Shown piece after piece: positions 1 to 60,809 of a DNA stretch of 64,000 nt. The stretch's first letter is position 1. Each line of letters opens with the position of its first letter. The stretch is from Heterodontus francisci (Eukaryota), in assembly GCF_036365525.1 (NCBI RefSeq), contig NC_090399.1, positions 54,158,430 through 54,222,429 of the forward strand, in the 5' to 3' direction. The position numbers and the translations under genes are program-made. Below the pieces are notes generated by a model. It did no database searches. It was not told the origin of the DNA and saw only the letters and a program-made list of their open reading frames with translations.

Positions 1-3000
1 GAAGGAGCAGAGTTTGTACAGATTGTATCCCATAATATCCACACTAATGTTCCGGACTGAATATCCAGTGAGTGAAGGAGCAGAGTTTGTCCAGATTGTA
101 TCCCATAATATCCTCACTAATGTTCAGGACTGAATATCCAATGAGTGATGGAGCAGAGTTTGTACAGATTGTATCCCATAATATCCTCACTAATGTTCAG
201 GACTGAATATCCAGTGAGTGAAGGAGCAGAGTTTGTCCAGATTGTATCCCATAATATCCACACTAATGTTCAGGACTGAATATCCAGTGAGTGAAGGAGC
301 AGTGTTTGTCCAGATTGTATCCCATAATATCCACACTAATGTTCCGGACTGAATATCCAGTGAGTAAAGGAGCAGAGTCTGTCCAGATTGTATCCCATAA
401 TATCCACACTAATGTTCAGGACTGAATATCCAGTGAGTGATGGAGCAGAGTTTGTACAGATTGTATCCCATAATATCCACACTAATGTTCAGGACTGAAT
501 ATCCAGTGAGTGAAGGAGCAGAGTTTGTACAGATTGTATCCCATAATATCCACACTAATGTTCAGGGCTGAATATCCAGTGAGTGAAGGAGCAGAGTTTG
601 TACAGATTGTATCCCATAATATCCACACTAATGTTCAGGACTGAATATCCAGTGAGTGAAGGAGCAGAGTTTGTACAGATTGTATCCCATAATATCCACA
701 CTAATGTTCAGGACTGAATATCCAGTGAGTGAAGGAGCAGAGTTTGTACAGATTGTATCCCATAATATCCACACTAATGTTCAGGACTGAATATCCAGTG
801 AGTGAAGGAGCAGAGTTTGTACAGATTGTATCCCATAATATCCACACTAATGTTCAGGACTGAATATCCAGTGAGTGAAGGAGCAGAGTTTGTACAGATT
901 CTATCCCATAATATCCTCACTAATGTTCAGGACTGAATATCCAGTGAGTGAAGGAGCAGAGTTTGTACAGATTGTGACCCATAATATGCAGACGAATGTT
1001 CAGGACTGAATATCCAGTGAGTGAAGGAGCAGAGTTTGTACAGATTGTATCCCATAATATCCTCACTAATGTTCAGGACTGAATATCCAGTGAGTGAAGG
1101 AGCAGAGTTTGTACAGATTGTATCCCATAATATCCACACTAATGTTCAGGACTGAATATCCAGTGAGTGAAGGAGCAGAGTTTGTACAGATTGTAACCCA
1201 TAATATCCACACTAATGTTCAGGACTGAATATCCAGTGAGTGAAGGAGCAGAGTTTGTACAGATTGTATCCCATAATATCCACACGAATGTTCAGGACTG
1301 AATATCCAATGAGTGATGGAGCAGAGTTTGTCCAGTTTGTATCCCATAATATCCACACTAATGTTCAGGACTGAATATCCAATCAGTAAAGGAGCAGAGT
1401 TTGTCCAGATTGTATCCCATAATATCCACACTAATGTTCAGGACTGAATATCCAATGAGTGATGGAGCAGAGTTTGTCCAGATTGTATCCCATAATATCC
1501 ACACTAATGTTCAGGACTAAATATCCAGTCAGCAAAGGAGCAGAGTTAGTCCAGATTGTATCCCATAATATCCACACTAATGTTCAGGACTGAATATCCA
1601 GTGAGTAAAGGAGCAGAGTTTGTCCTGATTCTATCCCATAATATCCACACTAATGTTCAGGACTGAATATCCAGTGAGTAAAGGAGCAGAGTTTGTCCAG
1701 ATTCTATCCCATAATATCCACACTAATGTTCAGGAATGAATATCCAGTGAGTGAAGGAGCAGAGTTTGTACAGATTGTATCCCATAATATCCACACTAAT
1801 GTTCAGGACTGAATATCCAGTGAGTAAAGGAGCAGAGTTTGTCCAGATTGTATCCCATAATATCCACACTAATGTTCAGGACTGAATATCCAGTGAGTAA
1901 AGGAGCAGAGTTTGTCCAGATTCTATCCCATAATATCCTCACTAATGTTCAGGACTGAATATCCAGTGAGTGATGGAGCAGAGTTTGTATAGATTGTATC
2001 CCATAATATCCACACTAATGTTCAGGACTGAATATCCAGTGAGTGACGGAGCAGAGTTTGTACAGATTGTATCCCATAATATCCACACTAATGTTCAGGA
2101 CTGAATATCCAGTGAGTGACGGAGCAGAGTTTGTACAGATTGTATCCCATAATATCCTCACTAATGTTCAGGACTGAATATCCAGTGAGTGACGGAGCAG
2201 AGTTTGTACAGATTGTATCCCATAATATCCACACTAATGTTCAGGACTGAATATCCAGTGAGTGATGGAGCAGTGTTTGTACAGATTGTATCCCATAATA
2301 TCCTCACTAATGTTCAGGACTGAATATCCAGTGAGTGAAGGAGCAGTGTTTGTCCAGATTGTATCCCATAATATCCACACTAATGTTCCGGACTGAATAT
2401 CCAGTGAGTAAAGGAGCAGAGTTTGTCCAGATTGTATCCCATAATATCCACACTAATGTTCAGGACTGAATATCCAGTGAGTGAAGGAGCAGAGTTTGTA
2501 CAGATTGTATCCCATAATATCCACACTAATGTTCCGGACTGAATATCCAGTGAGTGAAGGAGCAGAGTTTGTCCAGATTGTATCCCATAATATCCTCACT
2601 AATGTTCAGGACTGAATATCCAATGAGTGATGGAGCAGAGTTTGTACAGATTGTATCCCATAATATCCTCACTAATGTTCAGGACTGAATATCCAGTGAG
2701 TGAAGGAGCAGAGTTTGTCCAGATTGTATCCCATAATATCCACACTAATGTTCAGGACTGAATATCCAGTGAGTGAAGGAGCAGTGTTTGTCCAGATTGT
2801 ATCCCATAATATCCACACTAATGTTCCGGACTGAATATCCAGTGAGTAAAGGAGCAGAGTTTGTCCAGATTGTATCCCATAATATCCACACTAATGTTCA
2901 GGACTGAATATCCAGTGAGTGAAGGAGCAGAGTTTGTACAGATTGTATCCCATAATATCCACACTAATGTTCAGGACTGAATATCCAGTGAGTGAAGGAG

Positions 3001-6000
3001 CAGAGTTTGTACAGATTGTATCCCATAATATCCACACTAATGTTCAGGGCTGAATATCCAGTGAGTGAAGGAGCAGAGTTTGTACAGATTGTATCCCATA
3101 ATATCCACACTAATGTTCAGGACTGAATATCCAGTGAGTGAAGGAGCAGAGTTTGTACAGATTGTATCCCATAATATCCACACTAATGTTCAGGACTGAA
3201 TATCCAGTGAGTGAAGGAGCAGAGTTTGTACAGATTGTATCCCATAATATCCACACTAATGTTCAGGACTGAATATCCAGTGAGTGAAGGAGCAGAGTTT
3301 GGACAGATTGTATCCCATAATATCCACACTAATGTTCAGGACTGAATATCCAGTGAGTGACGGAGCAGAGTTTGTACAGATTGTATCCCATAATATCCAC
3401 ACTAATGTTCAGGACTGAATATCCAGTGAGTGATGGAGCAGAGTTTGTCCAGATTGTATCCCATAATATCCACACTAATGTTCAGGACTGAATATCCAGT
3501 GAGTGAAGGAGCAGAGTTTGTACAGATTGTATCCCATAATATCCACACTAATGTTCAGGACTGAATATCCAGTGAGTGACGGAGCAGAGTTTGTACAGAT
3601 TGTATCCCATAATATCCACACTAATGTTCCGGACTGAATATCCAGTGAGTGATGGAGCAGAGTTTGTCCAGATTGTATCCCATAATATCCACACTAATGT
3701 TCAGGACTGAATATCCAGTGAGTGATGGAGCAGAGTTTGTCCAGATTGTATCCCATAATATCCACACTAATGTTCAGGACTGAATATCCAGTGAGTGGAA
3801 GGAGCAGAGTTTGTATAGATTGTATCCCATAATATCCACACTATTGTTCAGGACTGAATATCCAGTGAGTGATGGAGCAGAGTTTGTCCAGATTGTATCC
3901 CATAATATCCACACTAATGTTCAGGACTGAATATCCAGTGAGTGGAAGGAGCAGAGTTTGTATAGATTGTATCCCATAATATCCACACTAATGTTCAGGA
4001 CTGAATATCCAGTGAGTGGAAGGAGCAGAGTTTGTACAGATTGTATCCCATAATATCCACACTAATGTTCAGGACTGAATATCCAGTGAGTGAAGGAGCA
4101 GAGTTTGTACAGATTGTATCCCATAATATCCACACTAATGTTCAGGACTGAATATCCAGTGAGTAAAGGAGCAGAGTTTGTACAGATTGTATCCCATAAT
4201 ATCCACACTAATGTTCAGGACTGAATATCCAGTGAGTGAAGGAGCAGAGTTTGTCCAGATTGTATCCCATAATATCCACACTAATGTTCAGGACTGAATA
4301 TCCAGTGAGTAAAGGAGCAGAGTTTGTACAGATTGTATCCCATAATATCCACACTAATGTTCAGGACTGAATATCCAGTGAGTGATGGAGCAGAGTTTGT
4401 ACAGATTGTATCCCATAATATCTACACTAATGTTCAGGACTGAATATCCAGTGAGTGAAGGAGCAGAGTTTGTACAGATTGTATCCCATAATATCCACAC
4501 TAATGTTCAGGACTGAATATCCAGTGAGTGAAGGAGCAGAGTTTGTACAGATTGTATCCCATAATATCCACACTAATGTTCAGGACTGAATATCCAGTGA
4601 GTGACGGAGCAGAGTTTGTACAGATTGTATCCCATAATATCCACACTAATGTTCCGGACTGAATATCCAGTGAGTGATGGAGCAGAGTTTGTCCAGATTG
4701 TATCCCATAATATCCACACTAATGTTCAGGACTGAATATCCAGTGAGTGATGGAGCAGAGTTTGTCCAGATTGTATCCCATAATATCCACACTAATGTTC
4801 AGGACTGAATATCCAGTGAGTGATGGAGCAGAGTTTGTCCAGATTGTATCCCATAATATCCACACTAATGTTCAGGACTGAATATCCAGTGAGTGATGGA
4901 GCAGAGTTTGTCCAGATTGTATCCCATAATATCCACACTAATGTTCAGGACTGAATATCCAGTGAGTGGAAGGAGCAGAGTTTGTATAGATTGTATCCCA
5001 TAATATCCACACTATTGTTCAGGACTGAATATCCAGTGAGTGATGGAGCAGAGTTTGTCCAGATTGTATCCCATAATATCCACACTAATGTTCAGGACTG
5101 AATATCCAGTGAGTGATGGAGCAGAGTTTGTCCAGATTGTATCCCATAATATCCACACTAATGTTCAGGACTGAATATCCAGTGAGTGGAAGGAGCAGAG
5201 TTTGTACAGATTGTATCCCATAATATCCACACCAATGTTCAGGACTGAATATCCAGTGAGTGAAGGAGCAGAGTTTGTACAGATTGTATCCCATAATATC
5301 CACACTAATGTTCAGGACTGAATATCCAGTGAGTGAAGGAACAGAGTTTGTACAGATTGTATCCCATAATATCCACACCAATGTTCAGGACTGAATATCC
5401 AGTGAGTGAAGGAGCAGAGTTTGTACAGATTGTATCCCATAATATCCACACCAATGTTCAGGACTGAATATCCAGTGAGTGAAGGAGCAGAGTTTGTATA
5501 GATTGTATCCCATAATATCCACACTAATGTTCAGGACTGAATATCCAGTGAGTGATGGAGCAGAGTTTGTCCACATTGTATCCCATAATATCCACACTAA
5601 TGTTCAGGACTGAATATCCAGTGAGTGAAGGAACAGAGTTTGTACAGATTGTATCCCATAATATCCACACCAATGTTCAGGACTGAATATCCAGTGAGTG
5701 AAGGAGCAGAGTTTGTACAGATTGTATCCCATAATATCCACACCAATGTTCAGGACTGAATATCCAGTGAGTGAAGGAGCAGAGTTTGTATAGATTGTAT
5801 CCCATAATATCCACACTAATGTTCAGGACTGAATATCCAGTGAGTGATGGAGCAGAGTTTGTCCACATTGTATCCCATAATATCCACACTAATGTTCAGG
5901 ACTGAATATCCAGTGAGTGGAAGGAGCAGAGTTTGTACAGATTGTATCCCATAATATCCACACTAATGTTCAGGACTGAATATCCAGTGAGTGAAGGAGC

Positions 6001-6980
6001 AGAGTTTGTCCAGATTGTATCCCATAATATCCACACTAATGTTCAGGACTGAATATCCAGTGAGTGATGGAGCAGAGTTTGTCCAGATTGTATCCCATAA
6101 TATCCACACTAATGTTCAGGACTGAATATCCAGTGAGTGAAGGAGCAGAGTTTGTGCAGATTGTATCCCATAATATCCACACTCATGTTCAGGGCTGAAT
6201 ATCCAGTGAGTGACGGAGCAGAGTTTGTACAGATTGTATCCCATAATATCCACACTAATGTTCAGGACTGAATATCCAGTGAGTAAAGGAGCAGAGTTTG
6301 TCCAGATTGTATCCCATAATATCCACACTCATGTTCAGGGCTGAATATCCAGTGAGTGACGGAGCAGAGTTTGTACAGATTGTATCCCATAATATCCACA
6401 CTAATGTTCAGGACTGAATATCCAGTGAGTAAAGGAGCAGAGTTTGTCCAGATTGTATCCCATAATATCCACACTAATGTTCAGGGCTGAATATCCAGTG
6501 AGTGACGGAGCAGAGTTTGTACAGATTGTATCCCATAATATCCACACTAATGTTCAGGACTGAATATCCAGTGAGTGAAGGAGCAGAGTTTGTATAGATT
6601 GTATCCCATAATATCCACACTAATGTTCAGGACTGAATATCCAGTGAGTAAAGGAGCAGAGTTTGTGCTGATTGTATCCCATAATATCCACACTAATGTT
6701 CAGGACTGAATATCCAGTGAGTGAAGGAGCAGAGTTTGTACAGATTCTATCCCATAATATCCACACTAATGTTCAGGACTGAATATCCAGTGAGTGAAGG
6801 AGCAGAGTTTGTACAGATTGTATCCCATAATATCCACACTCATGTTCAGGGCTGAATATCCAGTGTGTGAAGGAGCAGAGTTTGTGCAGATTGTATCCCA
6901 TAATATCCACACTCATGTTCAGGGCTGAATATCCAGTGAGTGATGGAGCGGGGTTGGTACAGATTGTTTCCCATCATAGC
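1..6980 (+). repeat. 73-bp tandem array (>=95 copies, open at the window start), in intron 1 of ZNF gene 1
   Basis: Unit GTGAGTGAAGGAGCAGAGTTTGTACAGATTGTATCCCATAATATCCACACTAATGTTCAGGACTGAATATCCA is repeated with few variants. The same unit follows the exon-1 donor in the other three paralogues. Confidence 0.97.
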
Positions 6981-7175
6981 CATTTATCGCTCAATCAACA
7001 TATCAAAAACAGATTACCTGTTCATTATTACTTTGCCGTGTGTGGGAGCTTGCTGTTATCAAATTGAGTGCTGCAGTTCCTAAATAATGGCAGTGAGTAC
7101 ACTTCAGTCGTACATCATTGGCCGTAAAGTGTTTTGGGGCAACTGGTAGTCATGACTGGTGCCATATAGATGGAA
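6981..7175 (+). mobile_element. 3' fragment of a Deu-domain SINE (SacSINE1-like)
   Basis: Similar to the 3' half of the SINE copies at 33260 and 57790 (tttatc.ctcaatcaacat...acagatta.ctg.tcattat...tgtgggagcttgctg). Confidence 0.6.
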
Positions 7176-7339: not shown

Positions 7340-7366
7340 CTCACTCATTATTTTTTGTGTTACAGG
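7340..7366 (+). other. Putative splice acceptor of the large ZNF exon (gene 1)
   Basis: ctcactcattattttttgtgttacag|gagtatc. Conserved in the other three units, with exon starts at 33842, 46159 and 58385. Confidence 0.6.
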
Positions 7367-7911
7367 AGTATCTCACCGTATTAAATCAGAGAATAGAGAG
7401 AGGATAGACACCACGCCCAACCAAGACCCGAGGAGATCCCGGACATCACCCCAGGAACAACTCCACAGAAAAAGCATCTCCAATAAATCTGATTGGTCAG
7501 GTGAAGTGAAACTGACCAGTATCCAGTGTCCAGTCAAAACCAACACTTCCATAGGTTTGGCTGTGGGATATCAGTCTGTCCAGGGGATGGAGGGAGTGTA
7601 ACGGGTGAGATTGGAGAGAAGTCTCTCAGGTTCCACAAGCACTGGTTTTCACACTGTCCTTGATGTTCCTGAAACACTGGAATATCCACTCAGGTGAAAG
7701 GTCATTCACATTGAGGGGCGTCAGGCCTGCTCCGAGTGTGAGGAGGGCTTTGAGTGTTCATTATACCTTGTGCAGCATTGGCAGATCCTGACAGGTGTCT
7801 GACGTTTGCAGAGGGCTTTATATGATTGTTGGACCTCCTCATCCACAGACGGTGAGAGTGTAGACAGTCTTAGTGACACCATTGTGTCTCCTGTAACACG
7901 AGGGCAGCCAC

Positions 7912-8016
7912 ATGGCAGAGAAAGCAATTGAATGTGGACAATTTGACGGAGTCTCTGCAAGTTCATCAGGCCCTGTGAATCCCCAAACCATCAACACAGA
8001 GGAGTGGTGGTTCTAG
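7912..8016 (+). other. 34-aa upstream ORF, probably a remnant of the ancestral N-terminus (MAEKAIECGQFDGVSASSSGPVNPQTINTEEWWF*)
   Basis: The ATG has a cacATGg context and the ORF ends at TAG in ttc-TAG-tgt-gaa-gtg-tgt, at the start of a finger. Paralogous uORFs lie at 34388-34492 and 46695-46799. Confidence 0.55.
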
Positions 8017-8200
8017 TGTGAAGTGTGTGAGAAGATCTTTGTACAGTTATCGTACCTGCTGAAACACCAACACACCCACACAGGGGAGAAACTGTTCAAA
8101 GTCGAGGTGTGTGACAAAACCGTCCCACCTCCTGGTCCATGAGAAAACCCACAAAGGGGAGAAACCCTTCACGTGTGACATTTGCAACAAAGGTTTTGCA

Positions 8201-9253
8201 ATGTTGTCCAACCACTTACAAGACCAGCGCATTCACACAGCAGAGAGAGCGTTCAGGTGTGACGTTTGTGAGAGGACCTTCACACGCCCATCCACCCTCC
8301 TTGTCCACCAGCGGATCCACACAGGGGTGAAACCATTCCGCTGTGAGGTTTGTTCTAAAAGCTTCACACTGTCATCCACCCTCCTGATACACCAACGGAT
8401 CCATACAGGGGAGAGACCGTTCAAGTGTGAGGTTTGTGGTAAAACCTTCACACTGTCATCAACTCTCCTCCTTCATCACAGGATCCACACAGGGGAGAGG
8501 CCCTTCAGCTGTGAGGTTTGCCAGAAAACCTTCACATGCTCCTCGCGCCTGCTACAACATCAGAGGATTCACACGGGAGAGAAGCCCTTCAAGTGTGAAG
8601 TGTGTGATAAAGCCTTCACACGCTTATCAACTCTGCAGGATCACTACAGGATCCACACGAGGGAGAAACCTTTCAGGTGTGAGGTATGTGATAAAGCCTT
8701 CACCCAGTCATCGACACTCCTGGCTCACTCCAGGACACACACGATGGAGAAACCATTCAAGTGTGAGGTGTGCGATAAAGCCTTCACACACTCATCGACC
8801 CTCCTAGCTCATTATAGGATCCACACTGGAGAGAAACCCTTCAAGTGTGAGGTGTGTGATAAAGCCTTTACACACTCAGCAACCCTCCAGGCTCACGTCA
8901 GGACTCACACGAGAGAGAAGCCCTTCAGCTGCGAGGTCTGTGATAAAGCCTTCGCACGCTCATCGAACCTCCTGGCTCATTTCAGGACACACACGAGGGA
9001 GAAACCCTCCCGCTGTGAGTTTTGTAAGAAAACCTTCCGGCATTTGTCAGACCTGGTGGAACATCAGCGAACCCACACAGGGGAGACCCCATTCAGGTGC
9101 GAATTCTGCAACAAAGCTTTCAGACATTTGCCTGACCTCCTGGAACATCAACGTACTCACACGGGAGACAAACCCTTCCAGTGTGACGTGTGCCAGGAAT
9201 GTTTCACCTACTCCTCATCTCTAGAGCTTCACCAGAGTCTCCACACGGGATAG
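8201..9253 (+). CDS. C2H2 (Krueppel-type) zinc-finger protein, paralogue 1; 12 intact fingers, 350 aa from the first in-frame ATG
   Basis: The frame is open from 8111 to 9253 with tandem CxxC-x12-HxxxH motifs and TGEKP-type linkers. The ATG at 8201 matches the ATG position in genes 2 and 3. The start is inferred. Confidence 0.85.
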   Translation: MLSNHLQDQRIHTAERAFRCDVCERTFTRPSTLLVHQRIHTGVKPFRCEVCSKSFTLSSTLLIHQRIHTGERPFKCEVCGKTFTLSSTLLLHHRIHTGERPFSCEVCQKTFTCSSRLLQHQRIHTGEKPFKCEVCDKAFTRLSTLQDHYRIHTREKPFRCEVCDKAFTQSSTLLAHSRTHTMEKPFKCEVCDKAFTHSSTLLAHYRIHTGEKPFKCEVCDKAFTHSATLQAHVRTHTREKPFSCEVCDKAFARSSNLLAHFRTHTREKPSRCEFCKKTFRHLSDLVEHQRTHTGETPFRCEFCNKAFRHLPDLLEHQRTHTGDKPFQCDVCQECFTYSSSLELHQSLHTG

Positions 9254-10094
9254 AAACCCTCCCAGATTGACATGTACCAGTGCAGTTTCACCATCTCCTC
9301 CTCCTCCTCCCTTCCAGTATGATCACTGCAAGAACTGCTTCACTGACATAGCCACATCGGCTTGGAGCAAACTCAAGTCCTCCAGCATTGTGATGGTTTT
9401 CAGAGCTGTCTCCAGGCTGCCTTGTCCCCCTGCAGCTGAGCAGCTGTTTCATTGTGGTACCTGTTCCAGAATTTGCAGCAATATCACCAAGCTTACCCAG
9501 TCTCACTGTATGCAGACCCATGAGAAAGTGTAGGGGAGCAATGCTTCTGACAAGACTGTTGACCAATCTGCTCCATTCGAATGCAGTGGATGTGAGCTTC
9601 GCCTGTGAGTGCCTGAATTTGGTTGTGGTACTGCACATGTTAAGTGTGTCAGTGTGGTCTTGGATTTGATGTCTCGGATGTATAGGAGAATAGTACGTGC
9701 AGGTCAAGATAATATTACTGATCACTCGAAGCAATCTTTCTAAGTTTCTGACTGTGGGGACTTTGAGAATTACCTGTACTGGCTAACCTATCAGGGAAGA
9801 TAGATCTGGGAAAATAATCAGCTCAGGATTACTACCTGTGATATAACAGATGTATTTCGATCAAGAAGTATGTTTGTCAAAAATCGTAACTTCAACATAA
9901 ATGAACTTCTGACCAGGGAAACAGCTCCAGTGTCCTGAGATTGCTCAGTTTAGACTTTAATATAACGGTGAGGATGAACTCCAGTCAACTCCATTTATCT
10001 TGTTATAATCATCCAGGATTCAGTTAAAGGACTCCAAGAATGTTGAAACATTTGTTATTTTGGTTTCAAAAAATACTTCTCAGTATTGGTACAA

Positions 10095-10162
10095 AATAAA
10101 TACAGCATTGTTCATCTGATGATTGACCTTGCTTCTGTATAGCTGTACATTCCTGCAATAAA
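10095..10162 (+). terminator. Candidate polyadenylation signals of gene 1
   Basis: AATAAA at 10095 and 10157, followed by GT-rich sequence. Paralogous sites lie at 37320, 49292 and 49354. Confidence 0.45.
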
Positions 10163-10652
10163 TCTCTCTTATTATCCTGAGCCTACACTATATACTCAAT
10201 TAGCCTGGTGTTTTCCCACCTATGGAAATGATTAGAAATGTCTGATTGGTATCCCTGTGTGTTTGATTAAAACAAGTTGATGAAGTGTATTTGTTCCCAG
10301 TGAGTGTGCTTGTCCACTCTGTCCACTGGTGAGATCTCTGTTTCACTCAGTGGGAGGTGTGGACTTGCCAATGGGAGCTGTTTAGTTTTCATGAGAAAGC
10401 TCAGGTAAGGGCATTGGTTGCAGGTTATGAGGCCCAAACTGCCTTGAGTCGCAGGTGATCAGCTTTTCTGAATGATCAGGTTATTCGTGATGAATGCATT
10501 TTTTTGGGGCACTGAAACACTGATTAACTGTCCCAATTTTCTGATGACTTTGATTTGACACCAGTCTTTTTATCTCCAGCACACACACACTGCCCAGGTC
10601 CTGACAGGAAATGGGTTCCCTTTAACACTTTCTCAGGTTGATACCAGATCAC

Positions 10653-27400: not shown

Positions 27401-29146
27401 TCGGTACTGAGAGAGTGCTGCGCTGTCGGAAGGTCGGGACTCGGAGTGCTGCACGGTCGGAGGGTCGGTACTGAGAGAGTGCTGCACTGTCGGAAGGTCG
27501 GGACTCGGAGTGCTGCACTGTCGGAAGGTCGGTACTGAGAGAGTGCTGCACTGTCGGAAGGTCGGTACTCGGAGTGCTGCACTGTCGGAAGGTCGGTACT
27601 GAGAGAGTGCTGCACTGTCGGAAGGTCGGTACTGAGAGAGTGCTGCACTGTCGGAAGGTCGGGACTCGGAGTGCTGCACGGTCGGAGGGTCGGTACTGAG
27701 AGAGTGCTGCACTGTCGGAAGGTCGGTACTCGGAGTGCTGCACTGTCGGAAGGTCGGGACTCGGAGTGCTGCACTGTGGGAAGGTCGGTACTGAGAGAGT
27801 GCTGCACTGTCGGAAGGTCGGTACTCGGAGTGCTGCACTGTCGGAAGGTCGGTACTGAAAGAGTACTGCACTGTCGGAAGGTCGGTACTGAGAGAGTGCT
27901 GCACTTTCGGAAAGTCAGTACTCGGAGTGCTGCACTGTCGGAGGGTCGGTACTGAGAGAGTGCTGCACTGTCGGAAGGTCGGTACTGAGAGAGTGCTGCA
28001 CTGTGGGAAGGTCGGTACTGAGAGAGTGCTGCACTTTCGGAAAGTCAGTACTCGGAGTGCTGCACTGTGGGAAGGTCGGTACTGAGAGAGTGCTGCACTG
28101 TGGGAAGGTCGGTACTGAGAGAGTGCTGCACTTTCGGAAAGTCAGTACTCGGAGTGCTGCACTGTCGGAAGGTCGGTACTGAGAGAGTGCTGCACTGTCG
28201 GATGGTCGGTACTGAGAGAGTGCTGCACTTTCGGAAAGTCAGTACTCGGAGTGCTGCACTGTCGGAAGGTCGGTACTCGGAATGCTGCACTGTCGGAGGG
28301 TCGGTACTGAGAGACTACTGCACTGTGGGAAGATCGGTACTGAGAGAGTGCTGCACTGTGGGAAGGTCGGTACTGAGAGAGTGCTGCACTGTCGGAAGGT
28401 CGGTACTGAGAGAGTGCTGCACTGTCGGAAGGTCGGTACTCGGAGTGCTGCACTGTCGGAAGGTCGGTACTGAGAGAGTGCTGCGCTGTCGGAAGGTCGG
28501 GACTCGGAGTGCTGCACGGTCGGAGGGTCGGTACTGAGAGAGTGCTGCACTGTCGGAAGGTCGGGACTCGGAGTGCTGCACTGTGGGAAGGTCGGTACTG
28601 AGAGAGTGCTGCACTGTCGGAAGGTCGGTACTCGGAGTGCTGCACTGTCGGAAGGTCGGTACTGAGAGAGTGCTGCACTGTGGGAAGGTCGGTACTGAGA
28701 GAGTGCTGCACTGTCGGAAGGTCGGGACTCGGAGTGCTGCACGGTCGGAGGGTCGGTACTGAGAGAGTGCTGCACTGTCGGAAGGTCGGGACTCGGAGTG
28801 CTGCACTGTCGGAAGGTCGGTACTGAGAGAGTGCTGCACTGTCGGAAGGTCGGTACTGAGAGAGTGCTGCACTGTCGGAAGGTCGGGACTCGGAGTGCTG
28901 CACGGTCGGAGGGTCGGTACTGAGAGAGTGCTGCACTGTCGGAAGGTCGGGACTCGGAGTGCTGCACTGTCGGAAGGTCGGTACTGAGAGAGTGCTGCAC
29001 TGTCGGAAGGTCGGTACTGAGAGAGTGCTGCACTGTCGGAAGGTCGGTACTGAGAGAGTGCTGCACTGTCGGAAGGTCGGTACTGAGAGAGTGCTGCACT
29101 GTCGGAAGGTCGGTACTCGGAGTGCTGCACTGTCGGAGGGACTGTG
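15455..29146 (+). repeat. 33/31-bp CpG-rich minisatellite, ~13.7 kb (about 420 units), directly upstream of the gene 2 promoter
   Basis: Units GTCGGTACTGAGAGAGTGCTGCACTGTCGGAAG (33 bp) and GTCGGTACTCGGAGTGCTGCACTGTCGGAAG (31 bp). The array is degenerate at the left end and homogeneous at the right. Confidence 0.97.
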
Positions 29147-31599: not shown

Positions 31600-32372
31600 C
31601 AAGCTCGTTGAAGCCAAGTCTGGGCACCACACTATAGGAAAGATGTGAAGACATTAGAGAGGATGCAGAAAAGATTTACAAGATTGGTTCCAGGGATGAG
31701 GGCCTTCAGTTACATGGATAGACTGGAGAAGCTGTTCCCAACAGGGAAGAGAAGGTTGAGAGGAAATTTGATACAGTAGTTCAAAATCATGAGTCTATAC
31801 AGAATAGACAGTGTTAAACTCCAGAAAGTTTGTTATGTCAGGATAATGCTGGAACCTATCCTGACTCAGTTTCACATTTATTGTACAGAGTAAAAGGATT
31901 GCAAGTGTGTAACTCCTCACACCAAACCCTCCCCCAGTCTCAGTAAGTGTCAGCTTATACCTGCTCAAGTAAGACCCCAATTAACATCCTCTAACTGTAT
32001 ATAATCAAACAATTGATACACAATTAACAGATAGCAGGGAGAAACTGCTCTCATTGGTGGAAGGATCGAGAACCAGAGGACATCGATTTAAGCTATACAG
32101 CAGAAGAAGCAACTGCGACATGAAGAAAAGCTGTTTTTACGCAGCAAGGGGTTAGGATCCGGAATTCACTTCCTGATAGTGTGGTGAAGGCAGATTGAAT
32201 CGTGGCTTTCAAAACGGAACTGGATAATTATCTAAATAGAAAAAATTACAGGGCGACAGGGAAAGGGTGGTGAAGTGGGACTGGATGAGAAGCTCTTGCA
32301 GAGAGCTGACACAGACACGACGGGTCGAATGGCCTCTGTCTGTGCTGAAACTGTTCGATGAATCTATGATTC
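31600..32372 (+). mobile_element. CR1 LINE 3' fragment, interrupted by a solo LTR
   Basis: Decayed HYRKDVKTLERMQKRFTRLVPGM motif. The paralogous copy lies at 56360-56900. Confidence 0.75.
31812..32029 (-). mobile_element. Probable solo LTR (218 bp)
   Basis: Termini TGTTAA...TTAACA flanked by gacag/gatag. It is absent from the paralogous CR1 near 56560. The minus strand has a TATA-like motif followed by AATAAA. Confidence 0.6.
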
Positions 32373-32502: not shown

Positions 32503-32875
32503 TCAACAACAACCTGCATTTTTATAGCACATTTAACATAGTAAAATATCCCAAGGCACTTCACAGGAATGTTATCAAATAAATCACAACACCAATCCAT
32601 CAAAGGAGATATTAGGACAGATGATTAAAATCTTGGTCAAAGAGATGGATTTTAAGGAGCCTCTTCAAGGAGGAGAGAGAGGTGAAGAGGTTCAGACAGG
32701 AAATTCCAGAGTTAACAACCCAGACAGTTGAAGGCAGGGCCACCAATGGTGGAGTTATTACAATCGGGGATGCTCAAGAGGCCGGAATTAGAGGAGTGCA
32801 GATATCTCAGAGGGTTGTGGGGCTGGAGGAGGTTATAGAGATAGGGAGGGGCGAGGACATGGAGGGATTTGAAAA
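32503..32875 (-). mobile_element. L2-clade LINE 3' fragment
   Basis: Minus-strand ORF VFKSLHVLAPPYLYNLLQPHNPLRYLHSS. The paralogous copy lies at 57033-57405. Confidence 0.7.
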
Positions 32876-33259
32876 CACGCTCAATAATCTCACTAAAACT
32901 AACAGGTGTTAGATTTCCTGGGAACAGTGGGTTATTCCTCACATACTGTTAGAACTGTGGACAAACAATATAACTCCGATGAGTTAATGAAAGTAGAATG
33001 GTTAATAAGCAGTACTGATTGAAGACAATGTATTAAGATGTCTATTCCAGCTGGTACCTGGGTCTTTACCACGTTTCACAGCTTCAGGAACCCAGACACA
33101 AAGACAACACTGACACCTGCAGCTCTAACTAGTTACCACTTTAAATCAAATCAAACTTCCAGGCTGCAGCTTCGAGTGGGAAAAGCATTCTGTTCACAGC
33201 CTTGGGACTTAACCTCTTAGGAACTGAATCTAGTACAACAGAAATATTCTAAGTTATTG

Positions 33260-33655
33260 TCAGCCGTGGTTTAGTTAACACTCTCACCTCGGAGTCAGAA
33301 GGTTGTGGGTTTAAGGCCCATTCCAGAGATTTGAGCACTGAGGCTGACACTCCAGTGCAGTACTGAGGGTGTTAAACTGAGGCTCCCTCTGTCCACTCAG
33401 GTGGACATAAAAGATCACAGGGCACTATTTCAAAGAGCAGGGGAGTTATCCCCGGGATCCTGGTCAATATTTATCCCTCAATCAACATCACAAAAACAGA
33501 TTAGCTGGTCATTATCACATTGCTGTTTGTGGGATCTTGCTGTGTACAAATTGACTGCTGCATTTCCAACATGAAAGCAGTGACTGCATTTCAATTGGCT
33601 TTCAAGTGTTTAGGGACATCTGGTGATCATGAAAGGTGCTATATCAATGCAATTC
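33260..33655 (+). mobile_element. tRNA-derived Deu-domain SINE (SacSINE1-like)
   Basis: A tRNA-like head (cagccgtggtttagtt...ggagtcagaaggttgtgggtttaag) is followed by a Deu-like core (gttaaactgagg...caggtggacataaaagatc...ggcactatttc...gagcaggggagtt). The family was recognised from memory. Confidence 0.7.
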
Positions 33656-34595
33656 TTCCATGAGCTATAAAGAAATCCAACACAGGCAATCCAGGCAAAA
33701 TCCATTGATCCACATTTACTGCCCCCACAGTTCAGTAACCTGCTGACCCTCCTTGGACACCAGTCTCCCAGTGAGGGGTCAGCACCTTCAGAGATGGCAG
33801 AGAATCGGAGGAAACTCACTCATTATTTTATTGTGTTACAGGAGTATCTCACCGTATTAAATCAGAGAATAGAGAGTGGATAGACACCGCACCCAGCCAA
33901 GACCCGAGGAGATCCCGGACATCACCCCAGGGACAACTCCACAGAAAAAGCATCTGCAATAAATCTGATTGGTCAGGAGAAGTGAAATTGACCAGTGTCC
34001 TGCGTCTAATCAAAACCAAAGCTTCCATCAGTTTGGCTGTGGGATATCAGTCTGTCCAGGAGATGGAGGGATTGTAACGGGTGAGTTTGGAAAGAAGTCT
34101 CTCAGGTTCCACAAGCAGTGGTTTTCACACAGTCATTGGTGTTCCTGAAACACTGGAACATCCACTCAGATGAAAGGTCATTCACAGTGAGGGACGTAAG
34201 GACTGCTCAGACCGTGACGAGGACTTTGAGTGTTCATTATACCTTGTGATGCATTGGCAGATCCTGACAGGTGTCTGACATTTGCTGAGGGCTTTATATG
34301 ATTGTTGGACCTCCTCATCCACAGATGGTGAGAGTGTAGACAGTCTTAGTGACACCATTGTGTCTCCTGTAACACGAGAGCAGCCACATGACAGAGAAAA
34401 CAATTGAATGTGGACAATTTGACGGAGTCTCTGCGAGGTCATCAGGCCCTGTGAATCCTCAATCCACCAACACAGAGGAGAGGTGGTTCTAGTGTGAAGT
34501 GTGTGAGAAGACCTGCGTACGGTTATCGTACCTCCTGAAACACCAACACACCCACACGGGAGAAACTGTTCATTTGCGAGGTGTGTGACAGAACA

Positions 34596-34950
34596 GGGCG
34601 GCACAGTGGCGCAGTGGTTAGCACCGCAGCCTCACAGCTCCAGGGACCTGGGTTCAATTCTGGGTACTGCCTGTGCGGAGTTTGCAAGTTCTCCCTGTGT
34701 CTGCGTGGGTTTCCTCCGGGTGCTCCGGTTTCCTCCCACATGCCAAAGACTTGCAGGTTGATAGGTAAATTGGCTGTTATAAATTGCCCCTAGTATTGGT
34801 AGGTGGTAGGGAAATATATAGGTACAGGTGGGAATGTGGTAGGAATATGGGATTAGTGTAGGATTAGTATAAATGGGTAGTTGATGGTCGGCACAGACTC
34901 GGTGGGCCGAAGGGCCTGTTTCAGTGCTGTATCTCTAAACTAAACTAAAC
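34596..34950 (+). mobile_element. HE1-type V-SINE inserted in the decayed 5' fingers of gene 2
   Basis: tRNA-derived head with A- and B-box-like motifs, V domain tgcgtgggtttcctccgggtgctccggtttcctcccaca, and a (TAAAC)3 tail. The empty site gacaaaacattctctc is present at 59131. Confidence 0.88.
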
Positions 34951-35041
34951 ATTCTCTCAATCATCCCACCACCTGGTCCATCAGAGAACCCACACAGGGG
35001 AGAAACCCTTCACGTGTGACATTTGCAACAAAGCTTTCCTA

Positions 35042-36403
35042 ATGTTGTCCAATCACTTACAAAACCAGCACAGTCACACAGGGGAGAGACCCTTCATGTG
35101 TGAGCTGTGTGACAGGGCCTTCACACACCCATCGAAGCTGCTGATACACCAGCGGATGCACACAGCGGACAGATGCTTCAAGTGCGAGGTTTGTGGCAAG
35201 GCCTTCATGCAGTCGTCCACCCTGCTTCGCCATCAAAGGATACACACAGGGGAGAGGCCCTTCAGGTGTGAGGTGTGTGACAAAGCCTTCATGCAGTCAT
35301 CGACCCTCCTTCGCCATCAAAGTATTCACGCAGTGGAGAAACCCTTCAGTTGTGAGGTGTGTGATAAAGCTTTTGTGAAGTCATCCACCCTCCTGGTCCA
35401 CCAGCGAGTGCACACAGGGGAGAGACTGTTCAAGTGCAAGGTTTGTGGCAAGGCCTTCACTGAGTCATTGACCCTCATTCGCCATCACAGGATCCACACG
35501 GGGGAGAGGCCCTTCCCACACCGCTCGAGCCTGCGCCAGCAGCAGAGGATTCACATGGGAGAGAAACCCTTCAAGTGTGAGGTGTGTGATAAAGTCTTCA
35601 GACACTCATCGACCCTCCTGGCTCACTACGGAACCCACACAGGGGAGAAACCCTTCAAAGTCGAGGTGTGTGACAAAACGTTCCCTCAATCATCCCACCT
35701 CCTGGTCCATCAGAGAACACACACAAGGGAGAAACCCTTCACGTGTGACATTTGCAACAAAGCTTTCCCAAAGTTGTCCAGACTCTTACAACACCAGCGC
35801 ATTCATACAGGGGAGAGAGCGTTCAGGTGTGTGGTGTGTGATAAGACCTTCACACAGTCATCAGCCCTCCTTCTCCATCACAGGATCCACACAGGGGAGA
35901 AACCATTCAAGTGTGATATTTGTGATAAGACCTTCAGACAGTCGTCGACCCTCCGTCTCCATCACAGGATCCACACAGGGGAGAAACTCTTCAGGTGTGA
36001 AGTGTGTGACAGGGCCTTCACACACCGATCGACGCTCCTGATACACCAGCGGATCCACACAGGGGAGAGACCCTTCAGGTGTGAAGTTTGTGGTAAAGCC
36101 TTCGTATGTTCATCAAACCTCCTGGTTCATTTCAGGACCCACACAAGGGTGAAACCCTCCCGCTGTGAGTTTTGTAAGAAAACCTTCCCACATTTGTCAG
36201 ACCTGGTGGAACATCAGCAGACCCACACAGGGGAGACCCCATTCAGGTGTGAGTTCTGCAACAAAGCTTTCAAACAGTTGCCTGATCTCCTGGAACATCA
36301 ACGTACTCACACAGGAGGCAAACCCTTCCAGTGTGACGTGTGCCAGGAATGTTTCACCTACTCCTCCTCTCTAGAGCTTCACCAGAGTCTCCACACAGGA
36401 TAG
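35042..36403 (+). CDS. C2H2 zinc-finger protein, paralogue 2; 14 intact and 2 broken fingers, 453 aa
   Basis: ATG-initiated ORF of tandem C2H2 motifs with the same C-terminus as the paralogues. Confidence 0.85.
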   Translation: MLSNHLQNQHSHTGERPFMCELCDRAFTHPSKLLIHQRMHTADRCFKCEVCGKAFMQSSTLLRHQRIHTGERPFRCEVCDKAFMQSSTLLRHQSIHAVEKPFSCEVCDKAFVKSSTLLVHQRVHTGERLFKCKVCGKAFTESLTLIRHHRIHTGERPFPHRSSLRQQQRIHMGEKPFKCEVCDKVFRHSSTLLAHYGTHTGEKPFKVEVCDKTFPQSSHLLVHQRTHTREKPFTCDICNKAFPKLSRLLQHQRIHTGERAFRCVVCDKTFTQSSALLLHHRIHTGEKPFKCDICDKTFRQSSTLRLHHRIHTGEKLFRCEVCDRAFTHRSTLLIHQRIHTGERPFRCEVCGKAFVCSSNLLVHFRTHTRVKPSRCEFCKKTFPHLSDLVEHQQTHTGETPFRCEFCNKAFKQLPDLLEHQRTHTGGKPFQCDVCQECFTYSSSLELHQSLHTG

Positions 36404-37825
36404 AAACTCTCCGAGATTGACATGTACCAGTGCAGTTTCACCATCTCCTCCTCCTCCTCCCTTCCAGTATGATCACTGCAAGAACTGCTTCACTGACATA
36501 GCCACATCGGCTTGGAGCAAACTCAAGTCCTCCAGCATTGTGATGGTCTTCAGAGCTGTCTCCAGGCTGCCTTGTCCCCCTGCAGCTGAGCAGCCGTTTC
36601 ATTGTGGTACCTGTTCCAGAATTTGCAGCAACATCACCAAGCTTACCCAGTCTCACTGTATGCAGACCCGTAAGAACGATTTAGAGGTTCAATGTTTCTG
36701 AAAAGACCGTTGACCAATCTGCTCCATTCAAATGCAGTGGATGTGAGCTTCGCCTGTGAATGCCTGAATTTGGTTGTGGTACATGTTAGGTGTGTCACTG
36801 GTCTTGGATCTGTTGTCTCCGAACACGGTATGGGGTTTATACATAGGAGAATGGTACCTGTAGATCAAGATTGTATGACTGATAACTCAAAGCAATCTTT
36901 ATAAGCTTATAACTGTGGGGAGTTTGAGCCTTACCTGTAATGGCTAATCCATCAGGGAAGATAGATCTGGGAAAATAATGAGCTCAAGATTAATACCTGT
37001 GATATAACAGGTGTACTTCGATCAAAAAGAAGGATGTTCTTCAAAAATCCTAACTTAAGTCAAATGAACATCTGACTGGGGAAACAGCTCCAGTCTCCTG
37101 AGATCACTCAATCCAGACTTCAATATAATGGTGAGGGTGAACTCCAGTCAGCTCCATTAATCTTGTTATAATCATCCAGGATTCAGTTAAAGGACTCCAA
37201 GAATGTTGAAACATTTGTTATTTTGGTTTCATAAAATACTTCTCAGTATTGGTACAAGATACATAGGGTATTATTCGTCTGATGATTGAGCTTGCTTCTG
37301 TATAGCTGTACATTCCTGCAATAAATCTCTCTTATTATCCTGAGCCTACACTATATACTCAATTAGCCTGGTGTTTTCCCACCTATGGAAATGATTAGAA
37401 ATGTCTGATTGGTATCCCTGTGTGTTTGATTAAAACAAGTTGATGAAGTGTATTTGTTCCCAGTGAGTGTGCTTGTCCACTCTGTCCACTGATGAGATCT
37501 CTGTTTCACTCAGTGGGAGGTGTGGACTTGCCTATGGGAGCTCTTTAGTTTTCATGAGGAAGCTCAGGTAAGGGCAATGGTTGCAGGTTATGAGGCCCAA
37601 ACTGCCTTGAGTCGCAGGTGATCAGCTTTTCTGAATGATCAGGTTATTATTGATGAATGGATTTTTTTTTGGCACTGCAAAAAATGATTAACTGTCACAA
37701 TTTTCTGATCACTTTGATTTGACACCAATCTTTTTTTCTCCAGCAACACACTACCCAGGTCCTGACAGGAAATGGGTTGCCTTTGCCACTTTCTCAGGTT
37801 GATACCAGATCACCAACAACAAAAA

Positions 37826-46063: not shown

Positions 46064-46977
46064 CCCTTCCTGGGCAGCCGTCTCCCAGTGAGGGGTCAGC
46101 ACCTTCAGAGACTGGAGAGAGTCGGAGGAAAGTCACTCATTATTTTATTGTGTTACAGGAGTATCTCACCGTATTAAATCAAAGAGTAGAGAGCGGATAG
46201 ACACCACAACCAGCCAAGACCCGAGGAGATCCCGGACATCACCCTGGGGACAACGCAGTCAAAGCATCTCCAATAAATCTGATTGGTCAGGAAAAGGGAA
46301 ACTGACCAGCATCCAATCAAAACCACCACTTCCATAGGTTTGGCTGTGGGATATCAGTCAGTCCAGGAGATTGAGGGAGTGTAATGGGTGAGATTGGAAA
46401 GAAGTCTCTCAGGTTCCACAAGCAGTGGTTTTCACACAGTCATTGGCATTCCTGAAACACTGGAACATCCACTCAGGTGAAAGGTCATTCACGGTGAGGA
46501 GTGTAAGGACTGGTCCGAGTGTGAGGAGGGCTTTGAGTGTTCATTACACCTTGTGAAGCATTGGCAGATCCTGACAGGTGTCTGACGTTTTCTGAGGGCT
46601 TTATATGATTGTTGAACCTCCTCATCCACAGACGGTGAGAGTGTAGACAGTCTTAGTGACACCATTATGTCTCCTGTAACACGAGGGCAGCTACATGACA
46701 GAGAAAACAATTGAATGTGGACAATTTGACGGAATCTCTGCAAGTTCATCAGGCCATGTGAATTCCCAATCCACCAACACAGAGGAGAGGTGGTTCTAGT
46801 TTGGTGTGTGAGAAGACATTCGTACGGTTATCGTACTTCCTGAAACACCAACACACCCACACAGGGGAGAAACTGTTCAAAGTCGAGGTGTGTGACAAAG
46901 CATTCTCTCAATCATCCCACCTCCTGGTCCGTCAGAGAACACACACACGAGAGAAACCCTTCAACAAAGCTTCCCCA

Positions 46978-47862
46978 ATGTTGTCCAATCTCACACACGA
47001 TCAGCGCATTCACACAGTGGAGAGAGCATTCAGGTGTGAGGTGTGTGACAGGGCATTCACACACCCATCGACATTACTGATACACAAGCGGATACACACA
47101 GGGGAGAGGCCCTTCAGGTGTGAGGTTTGTGCCAAGGCCTTCATGCAGTCATCGACCCTCCTTCGCCATCAAAGGATCCACACAGGGGAGAGACCTTTCA
47201 GGTGTGAGGTGTGTGACAAAGCTTTTCTGAAATCGTCCACCCTCCTGATACACCAGCGGATCCATACAGGGGAGAGACCCTTCAAGTGCGAAGTTTGTGG
47301 CAAGGCCTTCACAGAGTCATCCACCCTACTTCTCCATCACATGATCCACACAGGGGAGAAACCCTTCAACTGTGAGGTTTGCCGGAAAGCCTTCACATAT
47401 TCCTCAAGCTTGCTGCAGCATCAGAGGATTCACACGGGAGAGAAACCCTTCACGTGTGAGGTGTGTGATAAAGTCTTTACGCACCCATGCCGCCTCCTCC
47501 AACACCAGAGGATTCATACGGGAGAGAAACCCTTCAGGTGTGAGATGTGTGATAAAGCTTTCACACGCTCATCGAACCTCCTGGCTCACTTCAGGACCCA
47601 CACAAGGGTGAAACCCTCCCGCTGTGAGTTTTGTAAGAAAACCTTCCTGCATTTGTCAGACCTGGTGGAACATCAGCGAACCCACACAGGGGAGACCCCA
47701 TTCAGGTGTGAGTTCTGCAACAAAGCTTTCAAACAGTTGCCTGATCTCCTGGAACATCAACGTACTCACACGGGAGACAAACCCTTCCAGTGTGACGTGT
47801 GCCAGGAATGTTTCACCTACTCCTCCTCTCTAGAGCTTCACCAGAGTCTCCACACGGGATAG
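46978..47862 (+). CDS. C2H2 zinc-finger protein, paralogue 3; 10 intact fingers, 294 aa from the first in-frame ATG
   Basis: The frame is open from 46801 to 47862, and the ATG is homologous to those of genes 1 and 2. Confidence 0.85.
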   Translation: MLSNLTHDQRIHTVERAFRCEVCDRAFTHPSTLLIHKRIHTGERPFRCEVCAKAFMQSSTLLRHQRIHTGERPFRCEVCDKAFLKSSTLLIHQRIHTGERPFKCEVCGKAFTESSTLLLHHMIHTGEKPFNCEVCRKAFTYSSSLLQHQRIHTGEKPFTCEVCDKVFTHPCRLLQHQRIHTGEKPFRCEMCDKAFTRSSNLLAHFRTHTRVKPSRCEFCKKTFLHLSDLVEHQRTHTGETPFRCEFCNKAFKQLPDLLEHQRTHTGDKPFQCDVCQECFTYSSSLELHQSLHTG

Positions 47863-48309
47863 AAACCCTCCCAGATTGACATGTACCAGTGCAGTTTCAC
47901 CATCTCCTCCTCCTCCTCCCTTCCAGTATGATCACTGCAAGAACTGCTTCACTGACATAGCCACATCGGCTTGGAGCAAACTCAAGTCCTCCAGCATTGT
48001 GATGGTCTTCAGAGCTGTCTCCAGGCTGCCTTGTCCCCCTGCAGCTGAGCAGCTGTTTCATTGTGGTACCTGTTCCAGAATTTGCAGCAATATCACCAAG
48101 CTTACCCAGTCTCACTGTATGCAGACCCGTGAGAAAGTGTAGGGGGGCAATGGACCAATCTGATTCCATTTGAATGCAGTGGATGTGAGCTTCATCTGTG
48201 TTTGGTTATAAAATATTTCTGAATTTGTAGCTGGACCAGAGCACTGGGATTTCAAATCGAGCAATGGCCTGCTGTGTCTGACAGAATGCACTGATATTAG
48301 AGACAATCA

Positions 48310-58200: not shown

Positions 58201-59541
58201 TTTCAAGTCTTCAAAAAATCCAGCACAGGCAATCCAGGCAAAATCCATTGATCCACATTTACTGCCCCCACAGTTCAGTCACCTGCTGACCCTCCCTGGG
58301 CACCAGTCTCCCAGTGAGGGGTCAGCACCTTCAGAGACGGGAGAGAATCGGAGGAAAATCACTCATTATTTTATTGTGTTACAGGAGTATCTCACCGTAT
58401 TAAATCAGAGAATAGAGAGTGGATAGACACCACACCCAGCCAAGACCCGAGGAGATCCCGGACATCACCCCAGGGACAATTCCACAGAAAAAGCATCTCC
58501 AATAAATCTGATTGGTCAGGATAAGTGAAATTAACCAGTGTCCAGCGTCTAATCAAAACCAAAGCTTCCATCGGTTTGGCTGTGGGATATCAGTCAGTCC
58601 AGGAGATTGAGGGAGTGTAACGGGTGAGATTGGAAAGACGTCTCTCAGGTTCCACAAGCAGTGGTTTTCACACAGTCATTGGTGTTCCTGAAATGCTGGA
58701 ACAGCCACTCAGGTGAAAGGTCATTTACGGTGAGGGGCGTAAGGACTGCTCCGAGTGTGAGGAGGGCTTTGAGTGTTCATTATACCTTGTGAAGCATTGG
58801 CAGATCCTGACAGGTGTCTGACGTTTGCTGAGGGCTTTATATGATTGTTGAACCTCCTCATCCACAGACGGTGAGAGTGTAGACAGTCTTAGTGACACCA
58901 TTGTGTCTCCTGTAACACGAGGGCAGCTACATGGCAGAGAAAACAATTGAATGTGGACAATTTTAGGAGTCTCTGCATGTTCATCAGGCCCTGTGAATCC
59001 TCAATCCACCAACACAGAGGAGAGGTGGTTCTCGTGTGAAGTGTGTGAGAAGACCTTCATACGTCCATTGTATCATCTGAAACACCAGTGCACTCACACA
59101 GGAGAGAAACTGTTCAAGGTCGAGGTGTGTGACAAAACATTCTCTCAATCATCCCACCTCCTGGTCCATCGGAGAACACACACGGGAGAAACCCTTCACA
59201 TGTGACATTTGAAACAAAGCTTTCCCAAAGTTGTCCAATCTCTTACAACACCAGCGCATTCACACATCGGAGAGAGCGTTCAGGTGTGGGGTGGGTGTCA
59301 GTCCCTTCATCACCCATCAATGCTAATACAGCACCAACACATTCACACCGGCAAGAAGCTGCTGCAGTGTGAGGTTCACGACTAATTGTTTGTGACCTCC
59401 TTGAGCTTGCAGGTTCACCAGTGCACGTACACAGGGGAGAGGCCCTTCAGGTGTGAGGTGTGTGACAATTCCTTCACTCAGTCTTCGCATTTTCTGCAGC
59501 ACCAGCGTATCCACCAAGGGAAGAGGACGTTCAGCTGCCAG

Positions 59542-60363
59542 ATGAGTGATAAAGCCTTCACACGGTCCTCAGCTCTCGTCCAACACCAGCGGACGCACAC
59601 AGGGGAAAAGCCCTTCAGGTGTGAGGTTTGTGACAAAGCTTTTGTGAGATCGTCCACACTCCTGGTCCACCAGCGAGTGCACACGGGGGAGAAACCTTTC
59701 CGCTGTGAGGTTTGTACAAAAGGTTTCACACTGTTATCTACCCTCCTGATACACCAGCGGATCCACACAGGGGATAGACCTTTCAAGTGCGAGGTTTGTG
59801 ATAAGACCTTCACGCAGTCATCGACCCTCCTTCACCATCACAGGATCCACACAGGGGAGAAACGGTTCAGCTGTAGGGTTTGCCAGAAAGCGTTCACACA
59901 CCCCTCGAGCCTGCTGCAACACCAGAGGATTCACACAGGACAGAAACCCTTCAGGTGTGAGGTGTGTGACAGAGCCTTCACACACACATCCCGTCTCTTG
60001 GAACACCAAAGGATTCACAGGGGAGAGAAACCCTTCAGGTGTGAGATGTGTGATAAAGTCTTCACACGCTCCTCAAACCTCCTGGCTCACTACAGGACCC
60101 ACACGAGGGAAAAAACTTCCCGCTGTGAGTTTTGTAAGAAAACCTTCCCACATTTGTCAGACCTGGTGGAACATCAGCAAACCCACACAGGGGAGACCCC
60201 ATTCAGGTGTGAGTTCTGCAACAAAGCTTTCAAACAGTTGCCTGATCTCCTGGAACATCAACGTACTCACACGGGAGACAAACCCTTCCAGTGTGACGTG
60301 TGCCAGGAATGTTTCACCTACTCTTCCTCTCTAGAGCTTCACCAGAGTCTCCACACGGGATAG
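59542..60363 (+). CDS. C2H2 zinc-finger protein, paralogue 4; 9 intact fingers from the first in-frame ATG (10 in the open frame from 59386); may be a pseudogene
   Basis: The frame is open from 59386 to 60363. The ATG used by the paralogues is AAG here (59228), and the upstream fingers carry a frameshift and a stop at 59383. Confidence 0.65.
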   Translation: MSDKAFTRSSALVQHQRTHTGEKPFRCEVCDKAFVRSSTLLVHQRVHTGEKPFRCEVCTKGFTLLSTLLIHQRIHTGDRPFKCEVCDKTFTQSSTLLHHHRIHTGEKRFSCRVCQKAFTHPSSLLQHQRIHTGQKPFRCEVCDRAFTHTSRLLEHQRIHRGEKPFRCEMCDKVFTRSSNLLAHYRTHTREKTSRCEFCKKTFPHLSDLVEHQQTHTGETPFRCEFCNKAFKQLPDLLEHQRTHTGDKPFQCDVCQECFTYSSSLELHQSLHTG

Positions 60364-60809
60364 AAACCCTCCGAGATTGACATGTACCAGTGCGGTTTCA
60401 CCATCTCCTCCTCCTCCTCCCTTCCAGTATGATCACTGCAAGAACTGCTTCACTGACATAGCCACGTCGGCTTGGAGCAAACTCAAGTCCTCCGGCATTA
60501 CGATGGTCTTCAGAGCTGTCTCCAGGCTGCCTTGTCCCCCTGCAGCTGAGCAGCTGTTCCATTGTGGTACCTGTTGTGAATTTGCAGCAACATCACCAAG
60601 CTTACCCAGTTTCACTGCATGCAGATCCGTGAGACAGTGTAGGGGGGCAATGGACCAATCTGATCCATTTGAATGCAGTGGATGTGAGCTTCATCTGTGT
60701 TTGGTTGTAAAATATTTCCGAATTTGTATCTGGACCAGAGCACTGGGATTTCAAATCAAGAAATGGCCTGCGGTGTCTGACAGAATGTCTCATAATATGC
60801 GTGCAATCA

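Follow-up and report, generated by a model that had tools for sequence, protein, structure and literature searches.

A young tandem cluster of C2H2 zinc-finger genes with a constant three-finger end in Heterodontus francisci

Tandem ZNF clusters that evolve by duplication and finger shuffling are known. In the portions of the cited papers drawn on here, mouse KZFP and related genetic units are described as paralogs in clusters whose fingers have been duplicated, deleted, or mutated, with degeneration of some units (PMC5363842). The FiNZ-ZNF genes of cyprinid fish carry an N-terminal non-finger FiNZ domain, and positive selection was reported in four of seven clades (PMC10547256). The dimerisation fingers of Ikaros and Hunchback are two in number and form a separable, deeply conserved domain (PMC5393059, PMC11185177). 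Interlocus conversion between tandem duplicates is associated with unusually long stretches of high identity, and experimental conversion tracts measure a few hundred bases (PMC3924818). Further papers cited in the comparison are PMC8455134 and PMC10380595.

The locus compared with these systems lies in a stretch of 64,000 nucleotides, referred to as the window (NCBI RefSeq assembly GCF_036365525.1, contig NC_090399.1, positions 54,158,430 to 54,222,429). It is a young tandem cluster of C2H2 zinc-finger genes which, within the window, are effector-less. The genes share a constant C-terminal end of three fingers behind variable fingers, and this contrast probably reflects inheritance at the array edge, conversion between paralogs, and ordinary purifying selection. 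Among the papers listed in literature searches, none dealt with this ZNF family, nor with a block of constant C-terminal fingers in cartilaginous fishes.

The four copies and their surroundings

The ZNF unit combines satellites and dispersed repeats with a single large zinc-finger exon, and four tandem copies (A-D) are present in the window. The features of the copies are as follows.

7366..8200 (+), copy A, 5' exon part: linker and decayed fingers, interrupted by stops and a frameshift; six ATGs upstream
8063-9253 (+), copy A, open frame: 12 intact fingers
8201..9253 (+), copy A, putative coding region from the first in-frame ATG at 8201: 350 aa, 12 fingers
8252..9007 (+), copy A, variable fingers: nine, including a locally expanded run resembling the fourth-last finger
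9008..9253 (+), copy A, constant end of three fingers with TAG stop
9254..9520 (+), copy A, post-stop conserved tract
33842..34948 (+), copy B, 5' exon part: dispersed repeat of ~340 nt (34601-34936) inserted into a finger
34949..36403 (+), copy B, open frame: 14 fingers; first ATG 35042; constant end 36158-36403
36404..36675 (+), copy B, post-stop tract
46762..47862 (+), copy C, open frame: 10 fingers; first ATG 46978; constant end 47617-47862
47863..48134 (+), copy C, post-stop tract
59386..60363 (+), copy D, open frame: 10 fingers, 9 after the first ATG at 59542; constant end 60118-60363
60364..60634 (+), copy D, post-stop tract: 11 private changes, one of them a 1-nt deletion

The four frames hold 46 intact fingers in total (CX2CX12HX3H, TGEKP-like linkers) and match Pfam zf-C2H2 and zf-H2C2_2, as is typical of Kruppel-type tandem C2H2 ZNFs. 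The clustered paralogs have gained, lost, and duplicated fingers (12, 14, 10, and 10 fingers; block duplication in B), which places the locus among Kruppel-type clusters. An earlier sequence-only reading of the window had counted 12, 14, 10, and 9 fingers; these counts stand for A-C, while D has 10 in its open frame and 9 only from its first in-frame ATG. The same reading had placed the starts of the constant end at 9008, 36158, 47617, and 60118, correctly, and the finger sequences that it quoted were also correct. Over long flanks, B pairs with D (32036-34595 vs 56568-59139) and A with C (10009-10608 vs 49197-49817), which suggests that an A+B pair may have undergone a higher-order duplication.

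The Pfam cut-off was reached by none of the 214 plus-strand open stretches of at least 40 aa outside the arrays and satellites, and no effector domain was thus found among them. KRAB matched 0 of these 214 stretches, all of them within the window, outside the satellites, and of at least 40 aa. For plus-strand stretches of this length within the window, the earlier statement that no KRAB, SCAN, BTB, or SET exon is visible was borne out.

The exons start at acceptor-like sites (7366, 33842, 46159, and 58385 in A-D), and their first 800-1200 nt contain linker and decayed fingers. In each of the four copies, stops or frameshifts disrupt this 5' part; one TAG is common to A-C, and the frameshifts differ. 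Within the exon, 6-12 ATGs per copy precede the first in-frame ATG. An internal ATG (8201, 35042, 46978, 59542) would have to serve for the start of translation, unless some other splice route were used. Fossil fingers 5' of the frames were detected by a DNA profile of the variable fingers, and the same profile detected none 3' of them. The 76-aa 5' linker of copy A, which ends in a stop, had 0 matches among 1.84 billion representatives. An ATG in a decayed finger linker (7912-8016; equivalents at 34388, 46695, and 58931) opens a frame of 34 codons in A, B, and C, where it stops at their shared TAG, and of 11 codons in D. It looks like an ancestral start that would now head an upstream ORF.

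Several repeats were recorded around the copies. A 73-bp satellite lies upstream of each ZNF copy (1-6982, 29475-30780, 42213-42794, and 55426-55569) and is thus part of the duplicated unit; its length varies strongly between the copies (95.6, 17.9, 8.0, and 2.0 repeats, 95-99% matches). A CpG-rich 33-bp minisatellite (15465-29137, 40639-41911, 51842-52028, and 53103-53428) is expanded to ~13.5 kb between A and B, with sub-periods of 64 and 97 bp; the many long open frames to which it gives rise are repetitive and do not represent genes. Downstream of copy C only, a 34-bp tandem repeat is present in 19.4 copies (50083-50732). The dispersed repeat in copy B is 85% like 42893-43217, and both are presumably of a tRNA-derived-looking short repeat type. 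Retroelement-like reading-frame fragments, which we take to be of LINE and Penelope types, were seen at 43659-44117 (+), 53911-54576 (-), and 61251-62814 (+); the two on the plus strand had no Pfam match.

The near-identical block and the mosaic

The last 81 residues of the other copies have 96-98% protein identity to copy C. At the nucleotide level, 15 changes in 243 columns of the constant end compare with 109/703 in the 5' exon part (Fisher P 1e-4), and 16 changes in 264 columns of the post-stop tract compare with the same background (Fisher P 6e-5). The near-identity that had been noted for ~270 bp past the stop indeed extends over about 265-270 nt.

Behind the stop, the last finger recurs in two fossil copies (9257-9303 and 9309-9385 in copy A; 0/1000 shuffles each), and a third and a fourth candidate are weak (28 and 96 of 1000 shuffles). 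These 3' fossils surfaced only with the last finger as query and not with the variable-finger profile. The stop codon occupies the position of the Glu of a TGEKP-type linker. With such fossils behind the stop, the constant fingers are what survives at the end of a longer array, decayed on both sides. Read-through of the stop was considered and rejected, a second stop being met after 22 codons.

Private changes in the post-stop tract of A-C are few (3/792 vs 71/2109 sites, P 2e-7), and copy D has 11/264 (copy B 2 vs D 11, P 0.02). The A-C tract is also more conserved than the synonymous sites of the constant end (Fisher P 0.0002, 0.003, and 0.026, which are not independent), and CpG content does not account for this (variable non-CpG sites 3/251 vs 66/654). 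Recent conversion among A-C and a cis-element relaxed in D both fit this low rate of change. A reading that we regard as unlikely would place a nucleotide-level element near the stop, namely a 3' UTR regulatory element or an acceptor at 9317 opening an alternative last exon of 71 codons. Besides the few private changes, it draws on a strong pyrimidine tract that ends in CAG at 9317 (23 pyrimidines in 25 nt), a content reached at 6 of the 2048 YAG sites in the window, four of which are these copies, and on the frame behind this site, which in A and C stays open over 71 codons, to about the end of the conservation. The pyrimidine tract, however, is accounted for by the Ser codons of the fossil finger. 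The frame behind it is frameshifted in D and ends differently in B, changes within it have no clear synonymous bias, and its peptide had no Pfam match and no usable match in an Atlas search. No RNA structure signal was obtained from the post-stop tract (fold z 0.69), and comparable islands occur elsewhere in the unit. Two of these are long and non-coding.

10009..10608 (+), non-coding island, A versus C: partner 49197-49817; 99% A-C, 95% to B; AATAAA at 10095 and 10157
32840..33560 (+), non-coding island, B versus D: partner 57370-58092; 98.5% over 724 nt

In the first island, A and C differ at 5/600 positions, against 31/300 immediately before it (P 3e-11), and A and B at 31/622. Two runs, of 265 and 221 nt, are free of mismatches, a length attained in 0/20000 permutations in either case. 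All four informative sites within 9008-9482 group A+C against B+D, and from 9545 on all informative sites group A+B against C+D; the paralog tree thus switches at the end of the constant block. Islands the size of the constant end are common in the cluster, non-coding DNA included, so protein function is not needed for them. In this one assembly, levelling of paralogs during assembly would give a similar mosaic. CpG mutability was rejected as a cause of the islands. Low-divergence islands common to three or four copies were also seen at 7803-7902 and 10116-10315 (2-3 mismatches per 100, and around the polyA signals 1 in 200); constraint and conversion both fit them.

Chemistry, selection, and relatives of the constant fingers

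The sequence-only reading had suggested that the constant fingers may be the effector or dimerisation module of a KRAB-independent chondrichthyan ZNF family. In the fuller form considered here, they would be a dedicated module for protein interaction in place of KRAB, with middle fingers that diversify to track their targets. The variable fingers do differ widely, with 25 different -1/3/6 triplets among 34. In copy B, a two-finger block is duplicated (34949-35091 and 35678-35820, 128/143 nt identical), and the fingers in the expanded run of copy A are 16-19% apart; for neighbouring fingers the range is 13-19%. The constant fingers are 28-37% from every other finger of their own copy. Twelve disjoint nearest cross-copy pairs were compared out of the 34 variable fingers, with 10 left unpaired. 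Their pS, the measure in which they differ most from the constant end, was 0.25-0.30, against 0.08-0.10 in that end and ~0.08 in the 5' exon background; finger shuffling predicts the higher synonymous divergence.

In the constant end, 12 codons vary, by at least 9 synonymous and 6 replacement changes, and the end is under purifying selection (binomial P 0.001-0.01, depending on transition weight). Its synonymous sites change at the background rate (9/51-65 vs 109/703), and its replacement sites are less variable (6/192 vs 109/703, P 6e-7). Pure conversion is therefore not enough to explain the constancy, as the sequence-only reading had allowed it might be, although the mosaic flanks agree with conversion having contributed. 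In zinc ligands and core residues, pN/pS was 0.00-0.02. The expectation that the constant fingers are more constrained than the variable ones failed: pN/pS was 0.14-0.19 against 0.24-0.31 in the variable pairs (N:S 6:9 vs 52:61, Fisher P 0.79), in a test of four copies and 15 changes by which a moderate difference would be missed. Nor was a replacement excess found at helix positions -1, 2, 3, and 6 of the middle fingers, where pN/pS was 0.39-0.49 against 0.28-0.36 in the rest of the finger; this test is small (12 pairs), and the choice of nearest pairs biases it downward.

Helix chemistry was compared with a reference set of 2220 fingers from 204 proteins, retrieved as matches to the constant end or the whole protein. 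Acidic residues at both +3 and +6 were found in 6/2220, Pro at +2 in 26/2220, and a net charge of -3 or lower in 4/2220. The last finger has a net charge of -3, the other two constant fingers -1 to +2, and the variable fingers 0 to +4. The last finger is also without both usual basic backbone residues, as are 77/2220 of the reference fingers, and the other two retain the backbone Lys and mostly the Arg too. The last helices had been called unusual for being acidic and hydrophobic and for a proline. Acidic +3/+6 and Pro at +2 are indeed rare, but a net acidic charge is confined to the last finger, and a hydrophobic +6 (21/34) and helix-start prolines (+1, 5/34) also occur in the variable fingers. 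The hydrophobic +6 is a family trait. The helix start of the last finger is that of an internal finger of copy C (C06). In 178 unrelated arrays, first and last fingers fit the consensus worse than inner ones (P 3e-11 and 3e-5), and second-last and third-last fingers were not atypical (P 0.32 and 0.61). The recognition code gives Asp at +3 and Glu at +6 a preference for cytosine.

A search with the constant end took in proteins of 192-2000 aa. Nothing above 56% identity was found among the candidates scored (25/30 of 192-613 aa and 59/63 of 614-2000 aa), and the matches were generic arrays only, with generic shark and ray ZNFs among them at 48-52%; as such genes are often unannotated, this places no more than a limit on wider conservation. 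The best 120 of 6162 matches to the whole copy C protein were generic arrays at 33-54% identity, none of them named from cartilaginous fish, a weak result because the ranking follows finger number. An Atlas search with the constant end returned generic C2H2 clusters only. IKZF or Hunchback was absent among the matches listed (searches with the constant end; PDB, best 60 of 198).

Taken together, a dedicated protein-interaction module is a doubtful reading of the constant end. The purifying selection, the rare helix chemistry including the lost backbone contacts, the empty effector search, and the diversity of triplets all speak for it. Against it, the constraint is no stronger than in the variable fingers, contact-position pN/pS is below 1, two of the three fingers keep basic backbone residues, a helix start is shared with an internal finger, similar islands lie in non-coding DNA, and no relative above 56% emerged. 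The three fingers also adjoin the array at the normal 28-aa period with no spacer, while the domains of IKZF1 are separable. A predicted complex of two copies of the constant end (score 0.00) speaks neither for nor against such a module. We hold it similarly doubtful that a young, lineage-specific effector or dimerisation module arose from decaying array-end fingers, perhaps with an alternative last exon via the 9317 acceptor. If a module of this kind were present, the locus would represent a KRAB-less ZNF family in which shuffled DNA-reading fingers are followed by a C-terminal handle that stays constant. The least probable reading, that the copies are decaying pseudogenes or related units with a constant block of pure conversion or assembly levelling, could appeal to the broken 5' fingers and upstream ATGs of all four copies, the repeat insertion in B, and the lack of a homologous polyA region in D, but is very unlikely given frames open for 325-484 codons in 4/4 copies, the near-zero pN/pS of zinc ligands and core residues, and constant-end replacement sites that lag behind the background while synonymous sites match it.

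The array edge and comparison with known systems

In the account that we consider probable, array-edge inheritance combined with paralog conversion and ordinary purifying selection, the internal fingers would be alike enough for out-of-register duplication, deletion, and exchange, a mechanism to which the finger numbers, the duplications, and dS point. Such exchange would change finger number and raise synonymous and replacement divergence together. The last three fingers may be too diverged from their neighbours for this and, anchored to unique 3' DNA, would pass on in register only. Conversion from paralog to paralog, as the mosaic suggests, would level them together with the adjacent 3' UTR. 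A nonsense change common to the copies cut short a longer ancestral array; the last three fingers are the end of it that still works, and ordinary purifying selection maintains them. Their likeliest role would be that of the fixed end of a DNA-reading array: the two fingers with basic backbone-contact residues may read a shared C-rich subsite, and the last finger, which probably does not touch DNA, may cap the array.

The rare chemistry of the last finger runs counter to this account, as does the ordinary make-up of second-last and third-last fingers in the reference arrays, and the A-C post-stop tract fits constraint as well as conversion. If array-edge inheritance is right, the locus is mainly a clean example of recombination alone creating a constant/variable pattern, and a caution against taking such patterns as function.

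In favour of the array-edge account, TGETP and GDKP linkers, and acidic residues at +3 as well, also occur in ZFP568, a solved DNA-binding array. Like the dimerisation fingers of Ikaros and Hunchback, as the cited portions describe them, the constant fingers are C-terminal and have non-canonical helices (PMC5393059, PMC11185177). Unlike them, they are three, are contiguous with the array, have fossil fingers behind them, and yielded no relative among proteins of 192-2000 aa; compared with the Ikaros precedent named in the earlier reading, they lack the separable domain and, within these searches, the kinship and the deep conservation. The FiNZ-ZNF genes, as far as the portions used describe them, are like this locus a vertebrate ZNF expansion that lacks KRAB and joins variable fingers to a constant part, but here the constant part is made of C-terminal fingers and positive selection was not detected (PMC10547256). 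Long high-identity stretches between paralogs resemble those in the cited account of interlocus conversion, and at this locus conversion would be read from one assembly (PMC3924818). Compared with the mouse KZFP units, to the extent covered by the portion cited, clustering and finger turnover are alike, no KRAB exon was found here in the window, and the common end block and the conversion mosaic are seen directly at the shark locus (PMC5363842).
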